Shown: positions 8,072-32,000, counted from the stretch's first letter. The stretch is DNA of 32,000 nt from Geobacter metallireducens GS-15 (GCF_000012925.1 NC_007517.1:780001-812000), one strand, 5' to 3'. Numbers and translations: made by a program. The notes: generated by a model not told the origin, from the sequence alone.

Positions 8072-8087
8072 TGGCGCCGATTTTGCA
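8072..8087 (+). promoter_or_regulatory. Sigma-54 (RpoN) -24/-12 promoter for module copy A
   Basis: TGGCGC-cgatt-TTGCA versus consensus TGGCAC-N5-TTGCW with exact GG-N10-GC spacing, about 165 nt upstream of the lipoprotein ATG. A palindrome TTCGTTGATAACGAA (8045-8059) lies immediately upstream. Confidence 0.5.
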
Positions 8088-8431: not shown

Positions 8432-10255
8432 ATGAAAAAGAAACTGCTCTCTTTTGCATCTGCCGCCGCCCTTCTGTCGACCGCTGTTGCCCCGGCGGCC
8501 TTTGCGGCAACAGCGCCATTAGCGGACGGCACCTATACGATCACGGTCAGCAAGTTCAATTCCAATGGTACGCTCTCAACGGTGTCGTCGAATTCTGCCG
8601 TTGCGACGGGGGGAAAGCTCGATTTCACCCTCCCGTCCATGCCGACCAGGAACGATGCCAATTTTCTCTTCTTCGAGTTGAAAGGTGTCAACGGAACGGT
8701 TGTGCGGCAGGGATTCGCTCCGGCACCGCCGGCGAGTGCCACCAACAAGCTCGGCATAAACGAGATGTCCGACAAGCAGGCGCAGGTAGTGAAGCAAGCG
8801 GCAGCCCTGGCAGGGAGCGATGATCCGATCCTGATGTCATACCTTCTGGTCATGCTCCGCTCTCCCGATATCAATGATGATGATATCTCCATGATTGCCC
8901 AGATGGGTAAGGCGGGAATTTTGGGTAGCGGTGGTTTTGAAGGTTTTTTGACATCCCCGTCAGGTGGAAACACAACCACCAATCAGTTGAAATCTCTCAA
9001 GGATTGCCTCATCTACAACAGCGATGGGACCCAAAAAACCCTCCGGAGCTTCACGGAAGGGTACTATGACGCTGTCAACATGATGACAGCGGACGAGCAG
9101 AAGGAAATGCAGAGGGCCGGGGGGCTGATGGGTGAAATATTCATCGATGCCGCCACCTGTGCCGGGATCAAGCCCGACCTGGTTCTTGCCGCCCACAATG
9201 CCGCAGGTGTGGCCGTTTATGACGACGAGAGCATGGCAGCCCTAACGGCCCATAATCCCAGCTTTGCCAGCGCCATGGAAAGTGCCATGACCACCTTCCA
9301 CATGAGGATTTCCGCATCGAACCTTGCCGGCGAATATTCCAAGGCGCTGACTGCCCTTGGTGCCTCCGGCAGCCAGGTAACCGATTTCCTCAATGCCAGC
9401 CGGAGCCTCATGACAAGCTTCGAGAGCCTTGACGCCCAGTATGCCGGGTTCTACGCGGATCCGGAGAGCTACGCGGCATCCAAGGGAACGACAGTGGACA
9501 TTGTCCAGACAGAACTCCAGGATGCCTTCCAGGCAGCATTCACTACTTTCCAGGGGGCCATTGCTTCCAAGGCTACCGATATCAGTGCAATGAAAACGGG
9601 TGTCCTGACGATGCTGCCGCCAGGGTCGACGTTACCCAATACCTTCGGGACCTATACGATGTTTGCCGCCCCGGACCAGGCGACGTGTAAAGCCGCCGGC
9701 GGCACGTGGGGAGGGGATTGTGTCGCCAACTGGCCCATTCCCCAGACGGTCATGGTGACGTGGCTGGCAGGCATTCTTGGCAATGGCGGCGACTTTGCCT
9801 ATACGCGGGACACGACGCCGCTTCAGTCTTTCGCCGAGGGGTTCTGGGACGGCGAGTGCACCATAGCCGCGCCGGATCAGGCCGCCTGCACCATGAATGG
9901 CGGCATGTGGACCCAGGCCAGCACCTGCGTAGTTATGACGCAGAAGGGGATGTGCGAGGGGGTAGGCACCTGGAGCGCCCGGCACACGTTCTCATCGGGC
10001 AACGCCGCATTCAATGCCTTCCAGGGGATCCAGGAAGATATCGCGATTCTGGAGATGAAGCGGCAGGCGGAACGGGAGACAATAGCAGCGAGCGAGAAAG
10101 AAGAACAATATAACGAAATGCAGGCCAAAAAGAACTTTGTCGATGGCTTGGCAACGCTCGCAGGCAAAATAACCGGCAGGACCAACGCCACAACCCCTCT
10201 CACCGAGGCGCTGAAGCAGGCGATCATCGCCCTGATGCGGCAACCGAACATGTAG
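8432..10255 (+). CDS. Secreted 607-aa protein of unknown family (beta N-domain, Ala-rich helical core, Cys-loop region); module copy A
   Basis: AGGAAAGGA RBS is present. Signal peptide is MKKKLLSFASAAALLSTAVAPAAFA|AT. It is a full-length paralogue of 11718-13682. No recognisable catalytic motif. Confidence 0.85.
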   Translation: MKKKLLSFASAAALLSTAVAPAAFAATAPLADGTYTITVSKFNSNGTLSTVSSNSAVATGGKLDFTLPSMPTRNDANFLFFELKGVNGTVVRQGFAPAPPASATNKLGINEMSDKQAQVVKQAAALAGSDDPILMSYLLVMLRSPDINDDDISMIAQMGKAGILGSGGFEGFLTSPSGGNTTTNQLKSLKDCLIYNSDGTQKTLRSFTEGYYDAVNMMTADEQKEMQRAGGLMGEIFIDAATCAGIKPDLVLAAHNAAGVAVYDDESMAALTAHNPSFASAMESAMTTFHMRISASNLAGEYSKALTALGASGSQVTDFLNASRSLMTSFESLDAQYAGFYADPESYAASKGTTVDIVQTELQDAFQAAFTTFQGAIASKATDISAMKTGVLTMLPPGSTLPNTFGTYTMFAAPDQATCKAAGGTWGGDCVANWPIPQTVMVTWLAGILGNGGDFAYTRDTTPLQSFAEGFWDGECTIAAPDQAACTMNGGMWTQASTCVVMTQKGMCEGVGTWSARHTFSSGNAAFNAFQGIQEDIAILEMKRQAERETIAASEKEEQYNEMQAKKNFVDGLATLAGKITGRTNATTPLTEALKQAIIALMRQPNM

Positions 10256-10268
10256 GCAACCGGCGGGT

Positions 10269-10290
10269 GCGGGCGGCATGATCCGCCCGC
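10269..10290 (+). terminator. Perfect GC hairpin between the large gene A and the TonB-like gene (possible attenuator or partial terminator)
   Basis: GCGGGCGG-catgat-CCGCCCGC followed by gcttctttacc. The first in-frame ATG (10278) sits in the loop. Confidence 0.4.
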
Positions 10291-10301
10291 GCTTCTTTAC
10301 C

Positions 10302-11039
10302 ATGGACACGATTCAGCGTTTCATTATAGCTTCTCTGGCGCTCCACGGGGTGATTCTCGCCGCCGTTTCCTCGTATGATTCCATGACAGCCAGGCGCCAC
10401 AGGGTTCAGACCGCCAACTGGGTTGTGGACGTTATTACGGACATACGCAGCGAGCAGGCGGGGCCCGATAACAGCGCGGCAGTTCAGGACCAGGAAGTTC
10501 TGCCATCCCAGGATGAACCGCAGTCGCAGCCGCCCCCTGAATCTGCTGCCCCTGCGGAACTCCCCCCTGACGCCCCCCCCGCGCCTGTCCCTCCCGCCAG
10601 CCAGGCCGATCCATCAGTCGGCTCAACTGGAACCGGCGGGCAGGCGAGCGCCCCTGTCAATACCGTTGCCCTGACCGGCGCCTTTCTCAGCCAAGGGTTT
10701 CGCAACACCATGAATGCCCAGGCCATAGTCGCGCAGCTGGGGAACTACCGGAGGGTTTCGGGTCTGGCTCTCAAGGGGATGGTCTCGCAGGCCCTTCCCG
10801 CCGAAGAGCGTCAGCGGCCGGACGAGGTTCGGGGTACCGTTCTGGTAACCTTCCAGGACGGCGCTGTCGCCTCCCTTTCGGTGGAGTCGGAGGACGAGCA
10901 GTTCCGCTCCCTCCTCCGTGACCGGATCGACTGGAGCCTCCTCCCGGCGCCGCGCCAGTTTTCCCTCCCCATTTCCCGTGTCGCCTGTACGGTCAGCGTC
11001 TCCAACGGCAAAATCAGGGTCGGGGTCGGTCCGATCTGA
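10302..11039 (+). CDS. TonB-like protein (N-terminal membrane anchor, Pro-rich spacer, C-terminal TonB_C-like domain)
   Basis: MDTIQRFIIASLALHGVILAAV is the anchor. QPPPESAAPAELPPDAPPAPVPP is the spacer. GTVLVTFQDGAVASLSVES...LLPAP is the tail. The start at 10302 is preferred because 10278 lies in the hairpin loop. No exbB/exbD genes are in the window. Confidence 0.6.
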   Translation: MDTIQRFIIASLALHGVILAAVSSYDSMTARRHRVQTANWVVDVITDIRSEQAGPDNSAAVQDQEVLPSQDEPQSQPPPESAAPAELPPDAPPAPVPPASQADPSVGSTGTGGQASAPVNTVALTGAFLSQGFRNTMNAQAIVAQLGNYRRVSGLALKGMVSQALPAEERQRPDEVRGTVLVTFQDGAVASLSVESEDEQFRSLLRDRIDWSLLPAPRQFSLPISRVACTVSVSNGKIRVGVGPI

Positions 11040-11717: not shown

Positions 11718-13682
11718 GTGAAAAGAAATCTCATGACGTCCATTGGTGCCGCCGCCCTTGCTACTGCCCTGGTCGGGCCAGCCTCGGCCGCGCCAGCCGA
11801 CCCGTTGGCAGCCAACACTCAGTATGCCGTTTTGGTCAAAAAGATGAACAGCGACGGCTCTACGACGCTGGTTGATTCGGCTAACGCCACCACCGATGCC
11901 GATGGCAAACTCACCTTCAACTTCACCACAATGCCCACCAGGCCCGATACCAATTTCATTGTCTTCGAGGTGAAGGATACCAACAGTACCGTCCGGCAGG
12001 GAATCGCGCCGGCTCCCCCGGAAAACGACCCTAACCTTCTTGGCATCAACAACCTCTCCACAGTCCAGACGAAGGCGCTCCTGGCCGCGGCTGCCGAAGC
12101 CGGCAGTGACGACCCGATCATGATGGCCTATGCCCTGACGCTGCTCCGTTCTCCCAATGCGACGGCGGATGACACCACCATCATTGGCAAGCTGGGCAAG
12201 GGGGCAATCATTGGGGGATTCGAGGCGTTCCTCACGGACCCGGCCAAGGGGAACGTGAGCACCGAGGGATTGGCGAAGCTCAAAGAGTGCCTGGTATACA
12301 ACGAAACCGAGGGGGCCAAAACTCTCCGTGACTTCACCGAAAGCTTTTACAATGCCAACGCGGCGTCCAGCGATGCCGCTGCCGACCAAGAGATGCAGAA
12401 GGCCGGCGGGTTCATGGCCGAGATGTTCATGGATGCGGCCAAATGCGCCAATATCGACCTGGGGCTCATCAATGCGGCCCACAATGCGGCGGGAGACGCC
12501 GCCGAGGCGATTGAGGATCCTCCCGGCACTCCCATCATGACCGGCCTGAGTTCGGCGGTTCAAATTGCCATTGAGCAGGCCATGTCCACCTTCCACAAGA
12601 GGATTGCCATCGTCAAGGTGTCCGGCGAGTATAGCAAGGCCCTCGCCGCCCTGAATGCTTCCGGTGCCGAAAGAGACAGGTTCCTTGCCGCCGTTAATGA
12701 CGTGGCAACGGCCATGGGAGCGGTGGAATCACAATATGCCGGCTTCTATGTGGACCCTCAGGCCTATGCGGATGCCAATTACCCCGGGGCGGGAGATGCA
12801 AATGCGCGTATTGCCGCGGCGCAGGCGGACATAGACGCCGCATACCAGACTGTCTGGAACAATTTCATGACGGCCATGGCTTCCACCGATGATGACATAA
12901 CCGCCATGAAGGCGAAGGTGGTTGCCGGCTTCGGTTTTTCACCGGGCCAGTTGCCGTCTGATTTCGGGAAATTCATGAACTCGGAAAGTCAGAGCATCAA
13001 CTGGCCCATTCCCCAGACGGTCATGGTTTCATGGCTGGGAGACCTGATGGGGGGGGGTGGGACGTTCAGCTACCTGAACAACCGGGACGATACCCCCATT
13101 CCCAACTGGGTAACGTGGATGGGAAGTTGCACCAAGGCCGCTGATCTGGCTACGGCGTGTGCGAGTTTTGGCATGACTTGGGGCGGAAACAACTGCGTGA
13201 CGCCCATACCTGACCAGCTAACCTGCGAACAACGCTCTAATCTTTTTTGGTCGGGAAGCAGTTGCCTGGTGAGCACCGACGCGCTAGGGGCGAGTGCCTG
13301 CCAGGGCGGATCGTACTACGACGCAGCCAGTGGCAAATGCGTCGTGATGGGACAAATGCAGGACACGTGTGGTATCGCTGGAGGGACCTGGACCACCGCT
13401 CGCACCGACTACTCGTCAATGCCGGCCCAGATGGGTGCATTCCGCGATCTGCTCGCCTTGCAGGAAGACATCAATATCATTGATTTTGAACGGATGAGCA
13501 TCTGGCAGGGGGCGGGGGCAAACCCGACCGGAGCGGAAGAAGCTGCCGCAAAGCTTGCATTCGAGCAAAACCTGGCCTCCATCAAGAATAACATTGCCGC
13601 CACCACCAACGGCACCACGTCCATAACCGCCGAGCAGAAGGCAGCCATCGTCAAGCTGATCATGCAGCCCAGTATGGACTGA
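11718..13682 (+). CDS. Secreted 654-aa paralogue of the 8432-10255 protein; module copy B
   Basis: GTG start lies 8 nt after GGAGGG. Signal peptide is MKRNLMTSIGAAALATALVGPASA|AP. It is collinear with copy A and has an expanded Cys-loop region (8 Cys versus 6 in that region). Confidence 0.85.
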   Translation: MKRNLMTSIGAAALATALVGPASAAPADPLAANTQYAVLVKKMNSDGSTTLVDSANATTDADGKLTFNFTTMPTRPDTNFIVFEVKDTNSTVRQGIAPAPPENDPNLLGINNLSTVQTKALLAAAAEAGSDDPIMMAYALTLLRSPNATADDTTIIGKLGKGAIIGGFEAFLTDPAKGNVSTEGLAKLKECLVYNETEGAKTLRDFTESFYNANAASSDAAADQEMQKAGGFMAEMFMDAAKCANIDLGLINAAHNAAGDAAEAIEDPPGTPIMTGLSSAVQIAIEQAMSTFHKRIAIVKVSGEYSKALAALNASGAERDRFLAAVNDVATAMGAVESQYAGFYVDPQAYADANYPGAGDANARIAAAQADIDAAYQTVWNNFMTAMASTDDDITAMKAKVVAGFGFSPGQLPSDFGKFMNSESQSINWPIPQTVMVSWLGDLMGGGGTFSYLNNRDDTPIPNWVTWMGSCTKAADLATACASFGMTWGGNNCVTPIPDQLTCEQRSNLFWSGSSCLVSTDALGASACQGGSYYDAASGKCVVMGQMQDTCGIAGGTWTTARTDYSSMPAQMGAFRDLLALQEDINIIDFERMSIWQGAGANPTGAEEAAAKLAFEQNLASIKNNIAATTNGTTSITAEQKAAIVKLIMQPSMD

Positions 13683-14752: not shown

Positions 14753-15835
14753 ATGAACGACGAGCTTCGCCGCCACTACGAGCGGTGGGTCTACCCCCGC
14801 TATCCCCTCCTTGCCTCGGTTCGCCCCTGGGACACCTATGCCCTGAACCTGGACACCCTCCATGCCCGCTTCAACGGCGCGCTCCCCAGCAGCCATGCCC
14901 GACGCATCCTCCTGGCCGGGTGCGGGAGCTTTTCACCGTACCCCACCTCCCTGGCCAACCCCGGCGTCCCCATCACCGCCCTTGACCTGTCGGCCGCGAA
15001 CCTGCGGCGGGCCCGGCTCCATTGCCTGGTCCACGGCCGGTTCGGCGTCGACTTCGAGCGGGGGGACATCCTTGACCCTGCAGCAGCTTCGGGGGAATAC
15101 GGCTTCATCGACTCCTTCGGGGTTATCCACCACCTGCCGGACCCCCTGGAAGGTCTGCGCGCCCTGGAGCGGCGTCTGGCGCCGGGGGGGATTCTGCGGC
15201 TCATGGTCTACAGCCGGGGGGGCCGGCGGGAGGCTGAATCGATCCGCACGGCCCTGCGGATCCTGAAGATAGGAGATGTGGCAACGGTGAAACGCCTCAT
15301 CAGGCGGGCGCCAGCAGGGTCCCGCTTCCGGCGATACGTGGACGCTTCCAGCGAGGCAGCCTTTGATGCCGGCATTGCTGACGCCTTCCTCCATCCCCGG
15401 ACCCGCACCTACCGCATCGACGAGCTCATGGCGCTGGTGGCGGAGACGGGGCTTACCCCCCTCATGCTCGCCCATGACAGTGCCCTCCCTTCTATGTCCG
15501 AGGAGATGGCGCGGCTGCGGCGCCTTGAGCGGGAAGGGGAGGAGACACCGAACTTCATCCTCTACCTGGGACGTCAGCCTCTCGGAGAGTGCGGCCTTTC
15601 CCCTGATGCCCGCCTCATGCTCAACCCGGCCCTCCGCACGGCGGTAGGACCCTTGCGACTGGCTCCGATCGTGATACCTCCGCGGCTTGGCCGGCCCAAC
15701 TCCCCCCTCGGCTTTGCCGAAAAACGCTTCCTGCGCCGTTTCATCTCCCCTGTCCCGGTGGCTTCCCTTGCCCCGGAAGAGCGTGAACGGGCGCGCCCCT
15801 TCCTCGATGCCCTCTTTCTGGTGGCGTTTCGGTAA
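14753..15835 (+). CDS. Class I SAM-dependent methyltransferase
   Basis: Motif I is ILLAGCGSFSP. Post-I is ALDLS. GVIHHLPDPLEGLRALERRLAPGGILRLMVY is also present. ATG 14753 is preferred; GTG 14744 overlapping the upstream stop is an alternative. Confidence 0.75.
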   Translation: MNDELRRHYERWVYPRYPLLASVRPWDTYALNLDTLHARFNGALPSSHARRILLAGCGSFSPYPTSLANPGVPITALDLSAANLRRARLHCLVHGRFGVDFERGDILDPAAASGEYGFIDSFGVIHHLPDPLEGLRALERRLAPGGILRLMVYSRGGRREAESIRTALRILKIGDVATVKRLIRRAPAGSRFRRYVDASSEAAFDAGIADAFLHPRTRTYRIDELMALVAETGLTPLMLAHDSALPSMSEEMARLRRLEREGEETPNFILYLGRQPLGECGLSPDARLMLNPALRTAVGPLRLAPIVIPPRLGRPNSPLGFAEKRFLRRFISPVPVASLAPEERERARPFLDALFLVAFR

Positions 15836-26435: not shown

Positions 26436-26451
26436 TGGAAAAAATCTTGCA
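26436..26451 (+). promoter_or_regulatory. Sigma-54-like -24/-12 promoter upstream of the CXXCH/minor-pilin operon
   Basis: TGGAAA-aaatc-TTGCA has correct GG-N10-GC spacing and lies 76 nt upstream of ATG 26527. The -24 box is weaker than consensus. Confidence 0.35.
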
Positions 26452-26526
26452 TAACTTTTCATGCATGTGGACCATACGCTGATTTTTTTGCCGATGGTCC
26501 AATACAATACCGATTGTGAGAGAAGA

Positions 26527-27240
26527 ATGAGATCCTTCCTGATAATGCTGTGTTTCATGGCGGTCATGCTTGGCAGTGTACCCTTTGTTGGGTCCGTCCA
26601 TGCCATGTCGGCTTTTTCGCGTAAATACGGCATGAAATGTGATTCATGCCATCGCCAGAGGATTCCGGAACTGAACGATTTCGGTGTGGCGTTTTACAAG
26701 AACGGTTTCATGCTGCCTGGACAGAATGGCTCAGCGAAGAAAGATACGGCCGCTTCTGCCGCTGTACCCCCAGTGACCGGCAAGGAGAGTGACAGCGCCG
26801 GCGAAGGTGCCCCCAAGGCGTCGGTTAAAGGCCCCGGAGAGGGCAAAAATGAAGAGGAGGAAGAGGAGGAGGAGGAAGAACCGCCACCTCCGCCCACGGT
26901 TGTCTATCGTCTGCCGTCACGGGACGGGAGCGTCTACTTCACCGATAATCCTATCCGGCAGGAAAGTGTTCCGGTTTTGAGAAAAAAGCAAGGTAGCCGT
27001 CCTGCGCCGTCACGTGCCGGTGTAATCCATCCAGCAAAACATCAAGGACGAGTTGCCGCCAAACAGCGAATGCTTTCCAGCGTTTCTGCGGCAGTCTCCC
27101 AAGAGCATTTCCGAAGTTATGAGGAGTGCATGGAGCAATCATTGCTTAAAGAACCGCCTCCCATTTCTGCCGAAGAAACAATGAACCGTCTGACTGCGGC
27201 TGAGAAACGCTGTTCGGCATATCAGTCAATAAAACGGTAG
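26527..27240 (+). CDS. Secreted protein with a single CXXCH haem-binding motif, poly-Glu/poly-Pro linker and DUF4124-like segment
   Basis: Signal peptide is MRSFLIMLCFMAVMLGSVPFVGSVHA|MS. CDSCH lies at 26638-26652. E10-P5 lies around 26851-26895. VVYRLPSRDGSVYFTDNP resembles the DUF4124 core. Two further Cys residues are near the C-terminus. Confidence 0.65.
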   Translation: MRSFLIMLCFMAVMLGSVPFVGSVHAMSAFSRKYGMKCDSCHRQRIPELNDFGVAFYKNGFMLPGQNGSAKKDTAASAAVPPVTGKESDSAGEGAPKASVKGPGEGKNEEEEEEEEEEPPPPPTVVYRLPSRDGSVYFTDNPIRQESVPVLRKKQGSRPAPSRAGVIHPAKHQGRVAAKQRMLSSVSAAVSQEHFRSYEECMEQSLLKEPPPISAEETMNRLTAAEKRCSAYQSIKR

Positions 27241-27267
27241 CCGTTGCGAAGGAATAGTGGGACTGTT

Positions 27268-27666
27268 ATGACCAGCCGTTTGAACCAGAAAGGGTATACC
27301 CTCGTTGAGATGCTGATTGCCATGTTTCTTCTGGTGGTTGGCTTTCTGTCGGTTTTTCTGGTGCTCTGGGCCTCTACAACGTCGGGGCGTTTCAGTCGAG
27401 ACATGACGACCGCGGCAAACCTTGGCCAGGATATGCTGGAGCGGATCGGTACCATGAAGTATGACGATTTGCCTGAAACAAGCGGATTTCAGAACTATCC
27501 GGAACCGTTCGGCGACAAGAGCCTGGCTGCCGCTGCCTTCGAGGCGCGACAGTGGCGGATATCTTCGGCCGGCAGCATGAAGATCGTGACCGCCAGGATA
27601 TCGTGGATCAAAAACGGCGCCAGGAAGACAAGGGATTTCACCATGGTCAGGCGGAAAGAGTACTAG
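27268..27666 (+). CDS. pilV: Type IV pilus minor pilin, PilV-like
   Basis: The prepilin leader and cleavage/methylation motif MTSRLNQKG|YTLVEMLIAMFLLVVG is present. The protein is 132 aa. Confidence 0.6.
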   Translation: MTSRLNQKGYTLVEMLIAMFLLVVGFLSVFLVLWASTTSGRFSRDMTTAANLGQDMLERIGTMKYDDLPETSGFQNYPEPFGDKSLAAAAFEARQWRISSAGSMKIVTARISWIKNGARKTRDFTMVRRKEY

Positions 27667-27669
27667 ACA

Positions 27670-28707
27670 ATGACGTGTGAGGCGTTGACGGCGCAGCCAA
27701 GGTCTATGGGGGGGTACACGCTTGTCGAGGTGCTTGTGGTCATCGTTATTCTGGCGGTGATCAGTGCCGGCTTGTCCACTGTGTTCATCACCGGGCAGAA
27801 AGAGTATGGCGTGCGTGAGGCTACCATCAGGATGCAGCAGCAGGCACGGCAGGCCATGAACGAGATGGAGCGGGAACTTAAAAACACCGGCTACGGCCTC
27901 ATGGATATGGGCGACCTGACTGTCAAAGTTTACAAGTCTAGCGGGGCCATTCCCTCCTGGCAGGTGGTCGAGGCGTCGGATGGCGGCACTGAGCCCGACT
28001 CGATCAAGGTCCTGTACAGCGGGGCCGAGAGCGACGTGGGATATGATTATATCGTTTCCGTGGATCACCCTACAAGTTCAGCGCTCATGCTGGTCAGCGC
28101 CGTTGGCTCCGTCCCCCCCTCGCGCACGCTCAATGACGATTTCATAAAAGGAGACCTGTTTCTCGTCTACGATCCGAGCGATCCGGGGAAGCCGGCTACG
28201 CGCTTTCAGGCGACGAATGTTACAGCTCCCGACAAGATCCATCACAACCCCGGAGGGTATAATCCTTCAGGAGGAACTCTCGACGTCGCGTACGGCGTTG
28301 GAAGCAAGGTTCTCAACCTGAGGCTGATGCAGGCGAAAAGTGTGTCATATTCAGTGGATGCCCGGCAGAACCTGATCAAGACCGTCGAAGACCTCAGCCT
28401 GATTGACCCTCCGGCAAATCAACGCACGAAAATAGTAGCATCCGGCGTCGAGGACCTTCAGATACGGTATCAGTTTAAGGACGGCACGTGGAAGAATGCC
28501 GGCGATCCCGGTTTCGTTGCGAAGGACCTTCGAGCGATTCAGGTGAGCATCATTGTCAGGACCGAAAAGCCCGATCCCCGCTATCCTGGGCAATCTCTTC
28601 AACTGACGGGCTCCTATGGCAATGGCGGAGTGAAAAATTCGGCAGGTTACCGCAGGATGGCCATGAGCACGATCATCTATGTGCGCAATCTTGGGTTCCG
28701 GGACTAG
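27670..28707 (+). CDS. pilW: Type IV pilus minor pilin / assembly protein, PilW-like
   Basis: Contains the motif ..RSMGG|YTLVEVLVVIVILAVISAG. The protein is 345 aa. Gene order matches pilV-W-X-Y1. Confidence 0.55.
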   Translation: MTCEALTAQPRSMGGYTLVEVLVVIVILAVISAGLSTVFITGQKEYGVREATIRMQQQARQAMNEMERELKNTGYGLMDMGDLTVKVYKSSGAIPSWQVVEASDGGTEPDSIKVLYSGAESDVGYDYIVSVDHPTSSALMLVSAVGSVPPSRTLNDDFIKGDLFLVYDPSDPGKPATRFQATNVTAPDKIHHNPGGYNPSGGTLDVAYGVGSKVLNLRLMQAKSVSYSVDARQNLIKTVEDLSLIDPPANQRTKIVASGVEDLQIRYQFKDGTWKNAGDPGFVAKDLRAIQVSIIVRTEKPDPRYPGQSLQLTGSYGNGGVKNSAGYRRMAMSTIIYVRNLGFRD

Positions 28708-28711
28708 TTGC

Positions 28712-29203
28712 ATGGGGGGACGGGTGCTGAATGAGCGGGGGGCTGCGCTGGTCGTGGCGATCATACTGCTGATGGTCCTCACCATCCTGATGACGGTACT
28801 GAATCATGCGACCCTGTATGAAATGATTTCAAGCCGCACTTATCAGGAATCCCAGCGGGCTTTCTACGCAGCCGAGACAGGGGTCCGCGATGCCCTGGAA
28901 TGGCTCGGAAAGCAGAATTCCCCGCCGGAAACCACCATCACCCCCCCCGGCTGGTTTTATGACGGGACCGTGGCGCGCAAGGACGCCACGTGGTGCTCTT
29001 GGCAGACAGTGGAGGATATCCATTTCCGGTACTATATCGAACACCTGAAAGACGCCCCGAATTACAACATGAGTAGCACCATCGGCAAGAACTCCAAGGG
29101 GCCGAAGAGCGTCCAGCACTACTACCGCATAACGGTCGACGGGGCCAACAGCACCTATCTGGTGCACAGGCAGGTCCAGGTCGTGACGACCGCCTACTGG
29201 TGA
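28712..29203 (+). CDS. pilX: PilX-like minor pilin (PilX_N-type N-terminus)
   Basis: MGGRVLNERGAALVVAIILLMVLTILMTVL matches the ERGxALxVALxxLxVLT PilX N-terminal pattern. ATG 28712 lies just after the pilW stop. Confidence 0.6.
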   Translation: MGGRVLNERGAALVVAIILLMVLTILMTVLNHATLYEMISSRTYQESQRAFYAAETGVRDALEWLGKQNSPPETTITPPGWFYDGTVARKDATWCSWQTVEDIHFRYYIEHLKDAPNYNMSSTIGKNSKGPKSVQHYYRITVDGANSTYLVHRQVQVVTTAYW

Positions 29204-29209
29204 CATGCA

Positions 29210-32000
29210 ATGAGAATCAGCAATTTTCATGCACGCAAAATCCTCTTGTTAGCCGCAATTCTCTGCTCTGTCGGCATTCTCGCGGCCATGTCCTTTGCGG
29301 CGATTTCCCAGTACCCTCTGTTCCTGACCGGCAGCGTGCAGCCGAACGTCATGATTCTCCTGGACAACTCCGGCAGCATGAATACGATCATGGAGCATCG
29401 GGACTACAGTCCCGGTACCGTGTATTCCGGCTCGTTCAGGGGGGGCGAAATTTACTTTAACAGAATTGACTACAGTAAAAGTGGAAATCCCTATTACCTG
29501 GTGAGCAGGGACACGGGGCACACCGTCGATGGTAACAATCAGAACCAGTACACAGTCAATGGCCGCTCGATCACGCTTCCGTTTCCCTATGTTGACACCC
29601 GCTGGAATGGCAACTACCTGAACTGGCTTTTTTTTCATGCGACTGCGGCCCAGTACGGCAGCCTAGCCACCGATGCATCGATCCGGGTGACAAGAATCCA
29701 GACGGCCAGATCTGTCATCAGCGACGTGGTTAAGAATGTCTCGGGTGTCAGGTTTGGCCTGTTCAAGCTGAACAACAGCCAGGGGGGGAGCAAGGTAAAG
29801 GATTGCGGCGCCCTGACCCCGACAACCGTCGATGCGGCGGTGGACGGGATCAATGCAGAAACCTGGACCCCCTTGGGGGAGACCCTCTCGGAAATCTGGC
29901 AATACTTCAGGGGGGGGGATTCCCTCTATAATTCGGGAACCTATACGACCCCCATTACCAACGGGTGCCAGAAGAATTACACAATTATCGTGACTGACGG
30001 GGAGCCGACCTACGACAACTGTTATCAAGGGCCGTTTGCTTCCTACGGCTGTCCCAAGGACCCCTATGACAAAGAGAACGAAAACGCTCCGAGCCATCTG
30101 GCCGATGTGGCGAAAGACATGCATGACGGCAACGCATCGCCGTTCAGTGGCAGGGTGCAGAATGTCTCCACCTACACCATCGGCTTGACGCTGGACAGCG
30201 CCCTCCTCGATCAGACAGCGGTGAACGGAGGGGGAAAATACTTCACGACGACGTCGGGAATCAGTCTTGCCACGGCCGTCCAGAATGCCCTGGCCGATAT
30301 TGTGTCCAAAATGGCGGCAGGAAGCAGCGTCGCCGTGAATACCCCGTTTCTGAACTCGAACAGCACGCTCTATCGGGCAAGATTCAAGTCACCGGACTGG
30401 AACGGTTATCTGGAGGCCTTCAAGCTTGACGCCGCCACCGGTGCTATCATCGGATATCCGAACTCTCCCGAATGGGAGGCGGGCTCTCGACTCAATAGTC
30501 GCTCATCTGCCCGGGCAATCTATACCGCCGGCGTGGATGGCGGCACGTACAAGCGGCTTGAGTACAGTACCGCCAACGGGACCAAACTGGCGGGTGCGGG
30601 ATTCATGAATTTTTCGTCCGCAAAGGCCAGCGATCTCATCGGGTATATCCGCGGTGATCGCTACGGAACAACAAACCCCGCTGGGTATCGCAACCGGACG
30701 AGCAAGCTCGGGGACATCATCTCATCATCACCCGTCGTCTACGGCCCTCCCGACGGTGTCTACACCGATGCAGCCTACAAAGCATTCAAGAGGGACTGGG
30801 CAACCCGAACATCGCTCATTCTGGCGGGGGCCAACGACGGGATGCTCCACGCCTTTGACGCCGCGACCGGTGACGAGGCATGGGCTTTCATCCCGAATAT
30901 TCTCTTAAGCAAGCTGAAGCTCCTGAGAAATGATCCCTATACGCACACAAGTTACGTCAATGGCGCGATCACGGTTGCCGACGCCTATATCCAGACGAAA
31001 AATGCCGACGGTACCACTGCCGGAACCGCGGGGTGGCGCTCCATAGCCGTCTGCGGCCTCCGCGACGGCGGCAAGGGGTATTTCGCCCTCGATATCACTG
31101 ATTCGGCCAATCCGATACCGTTATGGGAGCTTACCGCCACATCATCGGCAACACCGAACGGTCTGGGGTACTCGTTTGGAACCCCCCTGATCCTCAAACT
31201 GAGGGATGAAGCGGCAACCAGCGGATTCCGCTGGGTTGCGGCCCTTGCGAACGGCTATGAGGGACCCACAAGCAGCAAGGCCGCTTCGCTCATCATTGCC
31301 GACCTCGCCACGGGAGCGGTCATCAACGAGATCGTTGTCGACAAGTCGGCATTCAGTGGTGTCTCCCCTAATGGGCTTGCCTCTCCCGCTGCCATTGACA
31401 GGGATATGGACGGCTTCGCCGACACCCTCTATGCCGGGGATCTCAAAGGGAACATGTGGCGGTTTGACGTGAGCAGCGCCAAGATGGCCCAGTGGAAGGC
31501 TGACTGCATCTTTTCCGCCGGGGTCACCCAGCCGATAACCGCCGCTCCTGACGTGGTGGTGCGCCTCGGGTATCAGTATGTCTTCTTCGGCACCGGGAAA
31601 TACCTTGACGAGGGTGACAAGACCACATCATTCACTCAAAGCTTTTACGGGGTAAAGGATGATAATTCGACGAAAAATCTGACGCAAGCTGATCTGGTCG
31701 GTCAGACCATAACGGAGGTGACGTATTCGGGAGCCGTGTACCGGACCCTTTCAAGCTTTACGGTCGGCAGCAAGGATGGGTGGTATCTTGATCTCCCCGG
31801 TAAAGGCGAACGAGTTATCGCGGAACCTGAAGCTACCGGGACCAATGATGCCGGCAAGGTCAAATTCACAACTTTTATTCCATCCACCGATCCCTGTGAG
31901 CCGGGAGGTAAAGGTTGGCGCATGCAGGTCAATATGGAGACGGGTGGAGAGCCGAAGAAGTCGGTGTTTGTGGTGCCAGGAAGGCCGGACGGCACTGTCC
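29210..32000 (+). CDS. pilY1: PilY1-like tip adhesin with an N-terminal vWA domain and a C-terminal beta-propeller; the 3' end runs off the window
   Basis: Not in the ORF track because there is no stop. ATG 29210 opens a frame to 31999 (930 codons). Signal/anchor is MRISNFHARKILLLAAILCSVGILAAMSFA. MIDAS is LLDNSGSM plus TDGEPT. Also contains LILAGANDGMLHAFDAATGDEAWAFIP and a Ca-site-like DRDMDGFADTLYAGDLKGNMWRFD. Confidence 0.85.
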   Translation, partial: MRISNFHARKILLLAAILCSVGILAAMSFAAISQYPLFLTGSVQPNVMILLDNSGSMNTIMEHRDYSPGTVYSGSFRGGEIYFNRIDYSKSGNPYYLVSRDTGHTVDGNNQNQYTVNGRSITLPFPYVDTRWNGNYLNWLFFHATAAQYGSLATDASIRVTRIQTARSVISDVVKNVSGVRFGLFKLNNSQGGSKVKDCGALTPTTVDAAVDGINAETWTPLGETLSEIWQYFRGGDSLYNSGTYTTPITNGCQKNYTIIVTDGEPTYDNCYQGPFASYGCPKDPYDKENENAPSHLADVAKDMHDGNASPFSGRVQNVSTYTIGLTLDSALLDQTAVNGGGKYFTTTSGISLATAVQNALADIVSKMAAGSSVAVNTPFLNSNSTLYRARFKSPDWNGYLEAFKLDAATGAIIGYPNSPEWEAGSRLNSRSSARAIYTAGVDGGTYKRLEYSTANGTKLAGAGFMNFSSAKASDLIGYIRGDRYGTTNPAGYRNRTSKLGDIISSSPVVYGPPDGVYTDAAYKAFKRDWATRTSLILAGANDGMLHAFDAATGDEAWAFIPNILLSKLKLLRNDPYTHTSYVNGAITVADAYIQTKNADGTTAGTAGWRSIAVCGLRDGGKGYFALDITDSANPIPLWELTATSSATPNGLGYSFGTPLILKLRDEAATSGFRWVAALANGYEGPTSSKAASLIIADLATGAVINEIVVDKSAFSGVSPNGLASPAAIDRDMDGFADTLYAGDLKGNMWRFDVSSAKMAQWKADCIFSAGVTQPITAAPDVVVRLGYQYVFFGTGKYLDEGDKTTSFTQSFYGVKDDNSTKNLTQADLVGQTITEVTYSGAVYRTLSSFTVGSKDGWYLDLPGKGERVIAEPEATGTNDAGKVKFTTFIPSTDPCEPGGKGWRMQVNMETGGEPKKSVFVVPGRPDGTV

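Follow-up and report, generated by a model that had tools for sequence, protein, structure and literature searches.

Genes and features of the locus

The locus described here lies in a window of 32,000 nt from Geobacter metallireducens (the window being the whole stretch of DNA that was analysed). Its central gene is an open reading frame (ORF) at 26527-27240 on the plus strand, placed directly ahead of the pilus genes pilV, pilW, pilX and pilY1. The product of this ORF, called here the haem protein, has 237 aa and is exported and modular. In G. metallireducens it is annotated as 'cytochrome c, putative', and the homology search returned the identical entry 'cytochrome c, putative [G. metallireducens RCH3]' (100%) together with 30 other homologues; the annotation of this gene as a cytochrome was already known before the present analysis. 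The Pfam and NCBIfam scans of the window protein gave no match. From family alignments and a structure prediction the protein can be described as 'beads-on-a-string', largely disordered and carrying three small modules, namely a porin-less Cyc2-type monohaem module, a divergent DUF4124 module and a C-terminal helical hairpin. Its gene is a constant neighbour of minor-pilin/PilY1 cassettes in related genomes, and the protein is most likely a helper of pilus assembly rather than a link in electron transport.

The start at 26527 was preferred to the alternative ATG at 26461, which would lengthen the ORF, because both the family alignment and the ribosome-binding site GAGAGAAG favour it. A Sec-type signal peptide was read from the sequence at 26527-26604 (plus strand, aa 1-26, MRSFLIMLCFMAVMLGSVPFVGSVHA followed by MS), with cleavage predicted between VHA and MS. 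No lipobox was seen when this signal peptide was read, and its position is kept in all full-length homologues in the alignments. At its other end the protein terminates in ...SIKR, which is not the aromatic signal of an outer-membrane protein. An earlier reading of this DNA, made from the sequence only (the sequence-only reading), had described an ORF with a signal peptide, a single CXXCH motif 12 residues past the cleavage site, an E10-P5 linker and two C-terminal Cys residues, and each of these was found again: C38 is the 12th residue of the predicted mature protein, the E10-P5 run lies at aa 109-123 and the two Cys residues are C201 and C229.

Clustered at 90%, the family comprises about 30 homologues; at 50% these fall into about 15-17 clusters. 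All members belong to the Geobacteraceae/Desulfuromonadales, apart from one metagenome-assembled genome (MAG) labelled Anaerolineae, and those with names include the 'cytochrome C' of G. soli/G. anodireducens and a protein of G. pickeringii. The alignments display three conserved islands with variable low-complexity linkers between them, and over 27 diverse members the residues A26, C38, C41, H42, P47, L49, N50, F52, G53, F56, G134, C201, M219, E226 and C229 are invariant. The AlphaFold2 (AF2) model of the protein is poor overall (predicted local distance difference test, pLDDT, 61.7; predicted template modelling score, pTM, 0.29) and consists of short helices and disorder, with no beta-barrel; it agrees with the islands of the alignment. 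The pLDDT falls below 50 in the linkers (aa 67-113 and 145-189) and reaches 62-74 in the N-terminal island and about 60-65 in the middle one, and the confident part of the model is a plain helical hairpin. The first linker, assigned from its composition and from its pLDDT at aa 67-113, is acidic and proline-rich, occupies 26725-26895 on the plus strand (aa 67-123) and ends in E10P5; its length and sequence vary among the homologues.

A haem module related to Cyc2

The N-terminal module (26602-26724, plus strand, aa 26-66) reads AMSAFSRKY-GMK-CDSCH-RQRI-PEL-NDFG..F..NGF and contains the haem c attachment motif CDSCH at 26638-26652 (plus strand, aa 38-42). C38, C41 and H42 are invariant in the 27-30 homologues aligned, at identities down to about 27-33%, and by a naive estimate about 0.002 CXXCH motifs would be expected here by chance. 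The motif is almost certainly a real haem c site, because it is invariant and because the module is homologous to that of Cyc2, for which haem binding has been shown experimentally (PMC8406198).

This relationship came from a profile of the 41 positions of the N-terminal island, which was searched exhaustively with HMMER against 1.84 billion representative proteins and matched 1,747 of them at E <= 1e-3. Many of the matching proteins are 375-510 aa long, carry the haem module directly after the signal peptide and end in F, Y or W. Such aromatic C-terminal residues are a trait of outer-membrane beta-barrels. The Pfam scan of these porin-like proteins gave no domain and all are named 'hypothetical protein'. 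The published description of Cyc2, a fused cytochrome-porin, includes a signal peptide, one CXXCH, an upstream motif AxPxFAR[Q/K][T/Y] said to be 'unique to Cyc2', a PxL about 4 residues past the CXXCH, a 16-strand porin and a length of at least 365 aa (PMC8406198). The strict signature occurs in 58 of the 147 top HMMER matches and in none of the 14-17 representatives of the haem-protein family; of the 147 matches, 24-32 are full-length and porin-like. In the window copy the motif is AMSAFSRKY, with AxPxFAR altered by the changes P to S and A to S. The PxL is present as PEL, P47 and L49 being invariant; the P is the fifth residue after the His here and the fourth in several homologues.

When the modules of the Geobacter family were compared with the porin-type ones by hhalign, a probability of 99.8% and a consensus identity of 53% were obtained over 40 of the 41 columns, a score that is partly circular as the porin-type set had been retrieved with the Geobacter-family profile. 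Independent support is given by the whole-database HMMER search itself, where full-length porin-like proteins bearing the published Cyc2 signature were reached at E = 1e-10 to 1e-8. The link to Cyc2 is made through the published motif, length and porin criteria applied to these HMMER matches, not through alignment to the Cyc2 of PV-1 or A. ferrooxidans. When the 41-aa profile was used in a word-indexed homology search, not even family members were returned, which makes that search uninformative. Neither the N-module profile nor the whole-family profile matched a PDB sequence below E = 0.1, and the weak matches only reflect the context of the CXXCH. One of them, at a non-significant E = 0.18, is the N-terminus of 6qvm chain A, 'multiheme cytochrome cf', where a signal peptide and ATEQYAKDTGKNCSYCH resemble the module weakly; this structure could offer a template for the context of a first haem.

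By these profile comparisons the haem module is homologous to the Cyc2 cytochrome domain, with a degenerate signature and without the porin. The pattern [A]xxx[F/Y][A/S]R[K/Q][Y/T]-x3-CxxCH-x3-4-PxLNxFG..F..NG[F/Y] is common to both, and in Cyc2 and Cyt572, the outer-membrane iron oxidases (Keffer et al. 2021, PMC8406198), the module likewise stands at the N-terminus directly after the signal peptide. However, the haem protein has 237 aa against the minimum of 365 and lacks the 16-strand porin; AxPxFAR is degenerate (AMSAFSR) and in the window copy the PxL is shifted by one residue. Moreover, DUF4124 and a helical hairpin are the fusion partners of the Geobacter module, which occurs in Fe(III)-reducing Geobacteraceae, where its surroundings are pilus genes and not loci of iron oxidation. 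The haem protein is consequently not a member of the Cyc2 family; it is a porin-less carrier of the Cyc2 cytochrome module. FeGenie drops Cyc2 matches of less than 365 aa (PMC8406198), therefore this family would be filtered out.

The Cyc2-type nature of the module is new and had been missed by the sequence-only reading. It means that the Cyc2 cytochrome domain exists outside fused porins, which bears on how Cyc2 is recognized in metagenomes, since length filters discard the family, and on how so small a haem peptide is stabilised. The isolated cytochrome domain of Cyc2 could not be expressed without its porin (PMC8406198). Among the proteins with the Cyc2 signature a large subgroup was observed (P0053, P0057, P0062, P0067, P0076, P0082, P0093 and P0111) with the extended motif AIPAF[AS]RKYQTSC.TCH..[YF]PELNDFGEAFKKNGFKFPKDDE.FVKEPPV; most of the copies are truncated by contig ends and the full-length representative has 494 aa.

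The DUF4124 module and the C-terminal hairpin

The middle island is a divergent DUF4124 module at 26899-26952 (plus strand, aa 125-142, VVYRLPSRDGSVYFTDNP), assigned from Pfam matches at the level of the family. G134 is invariant in it, and Y127, D133, T139, D140, N141 and P142 are nearly so. PF13511 gave weak matches in 5 of the 30 full-length family members (best E = 0.003). When the middle segments were scanned in isolation, 5 of 10 matched DUF4124 in the same register; the segment of homologue P0041 scored 23.6 bits (E = 6e-5) against the PF13511 gathering score of 22, and the four others scored 13.7-16.9 bits. The DUF4124-like segment proposed by the sequence-only reading is thus supported for the family, where one homologue passes the gathering score, while the window copy escapes detection by Pfam.

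The C-terminal hairpin (27112-27237, plus strand, aa 196-237) contains the motif YxECME and the invariant C201, M219, E226 and C229. Its two helices (aa 198-207 and 215-235) are modelled by AF2 with a pLDDT of 82-95. A profile of the C-terminal two-thirds was searched for haem-less relatives resembling TfpC and returned known family members only, in a search limited by its word index. Because no haem-less relatives were found, the hairpin YxECME...M...AE..C appears to be specific to this family. The idea of a haem-less ancestor was considered and is unsupported by the same word-indexed search.

The literature search found only one DUF4124 protein that has been characterised genetically, TfpC (NGO0783) of Neisseria gonorrhoeae. 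Its Sec signal and DUF4124 are followed by a long unstructured stretch rich in Pro and by a helical, charged domain at the C-terminus, and it is needed to keep type IV pili assembled (PMC7593972). That DUF4124 is the domain of a known pilus factor had been missed by the sequence-only reading. The layout of TfpC is matched by the C-terminal two-thirds of the haem protein, with the disordered stretches at aa 67-113 and 145-189 and the helices at aa 198-207 and 215-235 as judged from AF2 and composition. Both proteins possess a Sec signal, a DUF4124-type module, Pro-rich disorder, charged C-terminal helices and a connection with type IV pili. On the other hand TfpC lacks a haem motif, its gene does not accompany those of the minor pilins, and its DUF4124 stands at the mature N-terminus whereas it is internal in the haem protein. 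The likeness is drawn from the published description of TfpC, and the DUF4124 match of the Geobacter family is weak.

Pilus genes and conserved gene neighbourhood

Downstream of the haem gene, all on the plus strand, follow a pilV-like minor-pilin gene at 27268-27666 (PF07963 N_methyl, E = 1.5e-7; TIGR02523 PilV, E = 1.4e-9, below its cut-off), a pilW-like one at 27670-28707 (N_methyl, E = 6e-7; PF16074 PilW, E = 1.4e-4), the minor-pilin gene pilX at 28712-29203 (PF14341 PilX_N, E = 1.7e-15) and pilY1 from 29210 to 32000, where it is cut by the end of the window (PF05567, E = 6e-43). The longest ORF of pilX begins at 28679, and the ATG at 28712 gives a gap of 4 nt after pilW. The N-methylation motifs and the PilY1 beta-propeller (PF07963, PF16074, PF14341 and PF05567) identify a type IVa minor-pilin/PilY1 priming cassette, and the gaps of 3-6 nt reported by the sequence-only reading proved to be 3, 4 and 6 nt, with the gene identities agreeing in Pfam and NCBIfam. 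The window PilY1 contains an EF-hand-like Ca motif, DRDMDGFAD (Dx[DN]xDGxxD), at aa 730-738 (31397-31423, plus strand).

Related loci were collected from a scan of one genome per species (nine loci, L001-L009) and from metagenomes and MAGs (six loci, L010-L015). A survey of orthologous clusters had been proposed by the sequence-only reading, and here the haem gene adjoins a minor-pilin/PilY1 cassette of the pilV-W-X-Y1 kind in 15/15 loci. In L001, L002, L007 and L009 the haem gene, pilV, pilW, pilX and pilY1 are co-directional as in the window. In L003-L006 and L008 a second type of cassette (type 2) is found, composed of pilV, pilW, pilX, a small ORF, pilY1 and a fimU/GspH-like gene, which is convergent with the haem gene and ends 20-30 nt from its stop. 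The PilY1 proteins of the two types are only about 26% identical and the types are non-orthologous. Counting all loci, the haem gene is convergent to the pilin cassette in 8 of 15. Of the six further loci, L010 and L011 lie after selB, L012 lies after pqiAB/mlaD, L013 and L014 are additional contigs and L015 lies beside an aminotransferase gene.

In an all-against-all comparison of the ORFs, the haem protein and PilY1 were the only proteins common to the nine genome loci, whose flanks represent three unrelated neighbourhoods; over all 15 loci there are at least five (sucCD/aminotransferase, selB, pqiABC/mlaD and two others). A porin gene is conserved in none of the 15 neighbourhoods, and the comparison of the nine genome loci showed no other conserved cytochrome or redox gene. 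The locus of G. hydrogenophilus (L003) is instructive, as both of its flanks match the window lineage: upstream, sucCD, a PAS kinase gene and the aminotransferase gene are 90-98% identical, and downstream genes are also shared. Between these flanks (L003 10001-17253 against window 26527-32000) the haem protein is 40% identical and the cassette is inverted and of the other type. Conserved flanks around a divergent haem gene and cassette indicate that the haem gene was exchanged together with the cassette. This apparent whole-cassette exchange resembles the swapping of pilin islands in other bacteria.

The association in all loci and in both orientations argues for a functional link that is independent of co-transcription, and by its neighbourhood the haem gene is best regarded as a dedicated accessory gene of Geobacteraceae minor-pilin/PilY1 cassettes. 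The correlation between the divergences of the haem protein and PilY1 (Spearman 0.64) was not accepted as a sign of co-evolution, as the pairs are non-independent and the haem protein simply evolves faster.

Two minor observations concern these loci. The small ORF of the type-2 cassette, of 119-144 aa and without Pfam match, lies between pilX and pilY1 (14875-15270, minus strand, in L003; also in L004-L006, L008, L012 and L013) and is absent from the type-1 cassette of the window. In addition, the family member P0015, which corresponds to L013 and L014 with a type-2 cassette, was deposited as 'Anaerolineae bacterium'; it probably derives from a mis-binned Geobacteraceae contig or, possibly, from horizontal transfer.

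Transcription of the locus

The stop of the haem gene (27240) is separated by 27 nt from the pilV ATG (27268), and no terminator-like site was found on the plus strand in this junction; the sequence-only reading had noted both points correctly. A sigma-54-like -24/-12 element (TGG-N8-TTGCA, TGGAAAAAATCTTGCA) occurs at 26436-26451 on the plus strand, 91 nt upstream of the ATG of the haem gene. It reads TGGAAA-AAATC-TTGCA, agreeing with the consensus TGGCAC-N5-TTGCW at 9 of 11 positions, and the spacing of the -24 GG and -12 GC is right. The bare pattern has 5 matches in the window against 2.0 expected, and since 10 of 100 shuffles also reach 5 this is not significant. A sigma-54-like pattern is present about 91-104 nt upstream of the haem gene in 6 of the 15 related loci, among them L001, L002, L007, L009 and L012, and lacking from the rest; in L012, a convergent locus, it stands 91 nt upstream of a monocistronic haem gene. 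The element that the sequence-only reading had named is a putative promoter, which has the right spacing and recurs in part of the family and whose bare pattern is not rare.

Co-transcription of the haem gene with pilVWXY1 is very probable in the window lineage because of the 27-nt gap without a terminator, and because elsewhere the gap is 1 nt or is replaced by a 4-nt overlap, as in L010, where the stop of the haem gene overlaps the start of pilV. The most economical reading of the sequence is that in the window the haem gene, pilV, pilW, pilX and pilY1 would be co-transcribed from a sigma-54-type promoter. The transcriptional arrangement of the haem gene nonetheless varies across the family. 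In L015, which belongs to a lineage like that of G. sulfurreducens, a canonical TGGCAC-N5-TTGCT (TGGCACAGGGGTTGCT) is found at 2448-2463, 83 nt before pilV and inside a gap of 234 nt between the haem gene and pilV, therefore the haem gene there lies outside the sigma-54 pilin operon. Co-transcription, which the sequence-only reading had taken as a link between haem protein and pili, is thus very probable in the window lineage and does not extend to the eight convergent loci or to L015.

An internal sigma-54-like TGG-N8-TTGCT at 27131-27146 (plus strand), 122 nt before pilV, may be a promoter for pilVWXY1. It is probably a by-product of coding, being kept only in the window and L001 and overlapping the ECME codons.

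Possible function of the haem protein

A haem protein encoded with pilus genes has a precedent in TfcP (Mxan_0363) of Myxococcus xanthus (Herfurth et al. 2022, PMC8833165). This periplasmic cytochrome c has a single CXXCH and a haem ligated by His and Cys, and it also possesses a stretch rich in Pro and a C-terminal helix that is charged. TfcP is encoded in the minor-pilin/PilY1 operon of cluster_1, is unlikely to act in electron transfer and stabilises PilY1.1 by promoting Ca binding, and its homologues have been reported only in Myxococcales (PMC8833165). The haem protein resembles it in the type I signal peptide, the single CXXCH, the Pro-rich stretch followed by a charged helical C-terminal part, the encoding in or beside a minor-pilin/PilY1 cassette and the EF-hand-like Ca motif of the PilY1 partner. 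In TfcP, however, a full class I cytochrome c fold takes up about 100 aa and the haem is ligated by His/Cys91, whereas the haem protein has only the 41-aa Cyc2-type module, together with an extra DUF4124 module and long disordered linkers, and no cytochrome c match was obtained for it in Pfam or NCBIfam. No conserved Cys, Met or His occurs within about 150 residues past its CXXCH, including the range of 50-60 residues where the distal Cys of TfcP is located; the invariant C201, M219 and C229 come only 159-187 residues later. The two proteins thus appear to share a genomic niche and an overall logic, not a fold, and would be analogous and not homologous. Accessory haem proteins of minor-pilin/PilY1 cassettes were therefore known; the different, Cyc2-type haem module and the DUF4124 are new. 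The sequence-only reading had called the combination of a haem protein with pilus-priming genes an unusual link: the partnership is indeed conserved, although TfcP is a precedent for it.

The family may also have been encountered in G. sulfurreducens. There, GSU1063-1066 are listed as pilus biogenesis genes (PMC3495685), and GSU1062 ('putative c-type cytochrome'), immediately upstream of them, is abundant at the protein level with Fe(III) citrate and showed the strongest induction of any cytochrome, alongside pilA, when Pd(II) was reduced; its authors placed it, as a proposal, in the periplasmic electron path (bioRxiv 10.1101/319194). GSU1062 is probably orthologous to the haem gene of the window, because of its position, because G. 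soli/G. anodireducens has a family member and because L015 has the identical layout. In L015 the order is aminotransferase gene, haem gene and pilVWXY1, and its haem protein is 54% identical to the one of G. soli/G. anodireducens. Like the haem gene, GSU1062 is immediately upstream of pilus genes, though in published work it figures as a general electron carrier of the periplasm. In the open-access library searched, no paper was found that notes a pilus association, a Cyc2-type module or DUF4124 for this family or for GSU1062.

The explanation that we prefer, at a probability of about 0.5, is that the haem protein acts in the periplasm as an accessory factor of the priming complex formed by PilY1 and the minor pilins. 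Such a helper would affect the stability, maturation or gating of this complex. By analogy with TfpC, the DUF4124 module and the helical hairpin would be interaction modules, and by analogy with TfcP the haem module would be a structural head, or one sensing redox state or Fe(II), and not a step of extracellular electron transfer. In Cyc2 the barrel presumably stabilises the haem peptide and provides the distal ligand; here M219 of the hairpin (or C201/C229) would supply the distal ligand and replace the contacts with the porin. The N- and C-terminal modules would then fold together around the haem, because the only invariant Met (M219) and Cys (C201 and C229) residues lie in the hairpin.

Several points weigh against this explanation. 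The haem protein has no detectable homology to TfcP and neither the class I cytochrome c fold nor a Pfam match, and the window copy gives no match to DUF4124 or any other Pfam family even at E <= 10. The AF2 model, with its pLDDT of 61.7 and pTM of 0.29, carries no information on contacts between modules. The EF-hand-like motif is present in the type-1 PilY1 proteins and in most PilY1 copies of the related loci; the motif scan found it absent in the type-2 cassettes of L004 and L006, therefore a Ca mechanism strictly like that of TfcP cannot apply throughout. All loci come from one family (Geobacteraceae/Desulfuromonadales), so the adjacency may partly be inherited synteny, and the orthology with GSU1062 is drawn from position and from relatives. 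The analysis shows the domain composition, the homology of the haem module and the conserved neighbourhood, while haem attachment, the periplasmic location, the interaction with PilY1 or the minor pilins and the effect on pili are what we infer. The link to pilus-priming genes is real and conserved, and the finding as a whole is entirely comparative.

Other explanations have to be considered. The sequence-only reading had taken the haem protein for a redox partner of the pilus system, either riding on or docking to the PilY1/minor-pilin tip and passing electrons between periplasmic carriers, pili and extracellular acceptors, or having a role in the secretion or assembly of cytochrome nanowires by a pseudopilus-like type IV machinery. 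The homology of the haem module to Cyc2, a genuine redox-active iron oxidase (PMC8406198), would suit such a role, as would the strict conservation of the association with pilus-priming genes and the behaviour of GSU1062, whose expression rises with that of pilA when Pd(II) is being reduced and which is abundant on Fe(III) citrate and has been placed in the periplasmic electron path. That placement is, however, a proposal from transcriptomics. One haem, carried by a module of 41 aa whose tethers are long and disordered, would be a poor wire, other cytochrome or redox genes are not conserved in the neighbourhood, and TfcP, the only characterised cytochrome of such a cluster, was shown not to act in electron transport. 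We consider electron transfer unlikely; the connection to extracellular cytochromes and nanowires, as the sequence-only reading drew it, is left without direct support, TfcP being a stabiliser of PilY1 that does not transfer electrons. It is no more probable that the protein is a sensor, its Cyc2-type haem reacting with periplasmic Fe2+ or with the redox state while DUF4124 and the hairpin switch the stability of the priming complex, so that pilus production is coupled to iron or redox conditions. Cyc2 modules do oxidise dissolved Fe2+ (PMC8406198), the expression of GSU1062 shifts with the metal acceptor, Geobacter pilus genes with conditional expression typically stand in a sigma-54-type promoter context, and the architecture, with a sensor module on a flexible tether joined to interaction modules, would fit. 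But the haem of TfcP appears to be purely structural, and the AxPxFAR of the published Cyc2 motif carries two changes in this protein, P to S and A to S. A bolder version, which seems rather improbable, is that the Cyc2-type module, hitherto regarded as unique to fused porins and unstable without the barrel, was recruited in metal-reducing Geobacteraceae as a tethered, porin-less head, reactive to redox state or Fe(II), that docks on the priming complex or is carried to the pilus tip. If true, it would couple the iron or redox state directly, at the molecular level, to the initiation of type IV pili and could bear on the role of Geobacter pili in extracellular electron transfer.

The absence of the barrel could instead mean that the porin-less haem module inserts in trans into a separate beta-barrel (a porin or the PilQ secretin) or into the beta-propeller of PilY1, rebuilding a cytochrome-in-barrel unit at the outer membrane. 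The failure to express the isolated Cyc2 cytochrome domain without its porin suggests the need for a protein scaffold (PMC8406198), and the Geobacter module is barrel-less yet strictly conserved. Nevertheless, none of the 15 neighbourhoods has a conserved porin gene and the protein's own invariant hairpin, with its Met and Cys residues, could scaffold and ligate the haem, which makes this arrangement very improbable. Scarcely better is the view that the adjacency is inherited synteny with no functional meaning and that an ordinary small periplasmic cytochrome lies beside a pilin cassette by chance, in one family. In its favour, all loci are from Geobacteraceae or close relatives, 8 of the 15 haem genes are not co-transcribed with the pilin genes and in L015 the canonical sigma-54 promoter comes after the haem gene. 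The adjacency has survived, however, at least five neighbourhoods, two types of cassette, both orientations and the replacement of a whole cassette; the haem gene and PilY1 are the sole genes common to the nine genome loci; and the haem protein contains DUF4124, which is independently tied to pili through TfpC.

Should the haem protein be an accessory factor of the priming complex, it would be a second, independently evolved c-type haem protein dedicated to PilY1/minor-pilin priming after the TfcP of Myxococcus, and a second case suggests that type IV pilus systems have come to use accessory haem factors repeatedly, not as an isolated curiosity. DUF4124, a widespread domain of unknown function with one genetic link to pili (TfpC), is tied here to pilus-priming genes by its neighbourhood. 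The 'periplasmic cytochromes' of the GSU1062 type that appear in Geobacter omics lists can be reinterpreted as probable pilus factors, which is relevant to the debate on pili versus cytochrome nanowires in Geobacter.

Other genes of the window

No sigma-54 activator was found among the remaining genes of the window, which are unrelated to the pilus cassette and include those for an agmatine deiminase-like protein, a methyl-accepting chemotaxis protein (MCP), histidine kinases and sucCD. Another TGG-N8-TTGCA (TGGCGCCGATTTTGCA) occurs at 8072-8087 on the plus strand and is followed after 345 nt by three large ORFs in a row. These ORFs, which have no Pfam match, lie on the plus strand at 8432-10255, 10278-11039 and 11718-13682 and encode products of 607, 253 and 654 aa, respectively.

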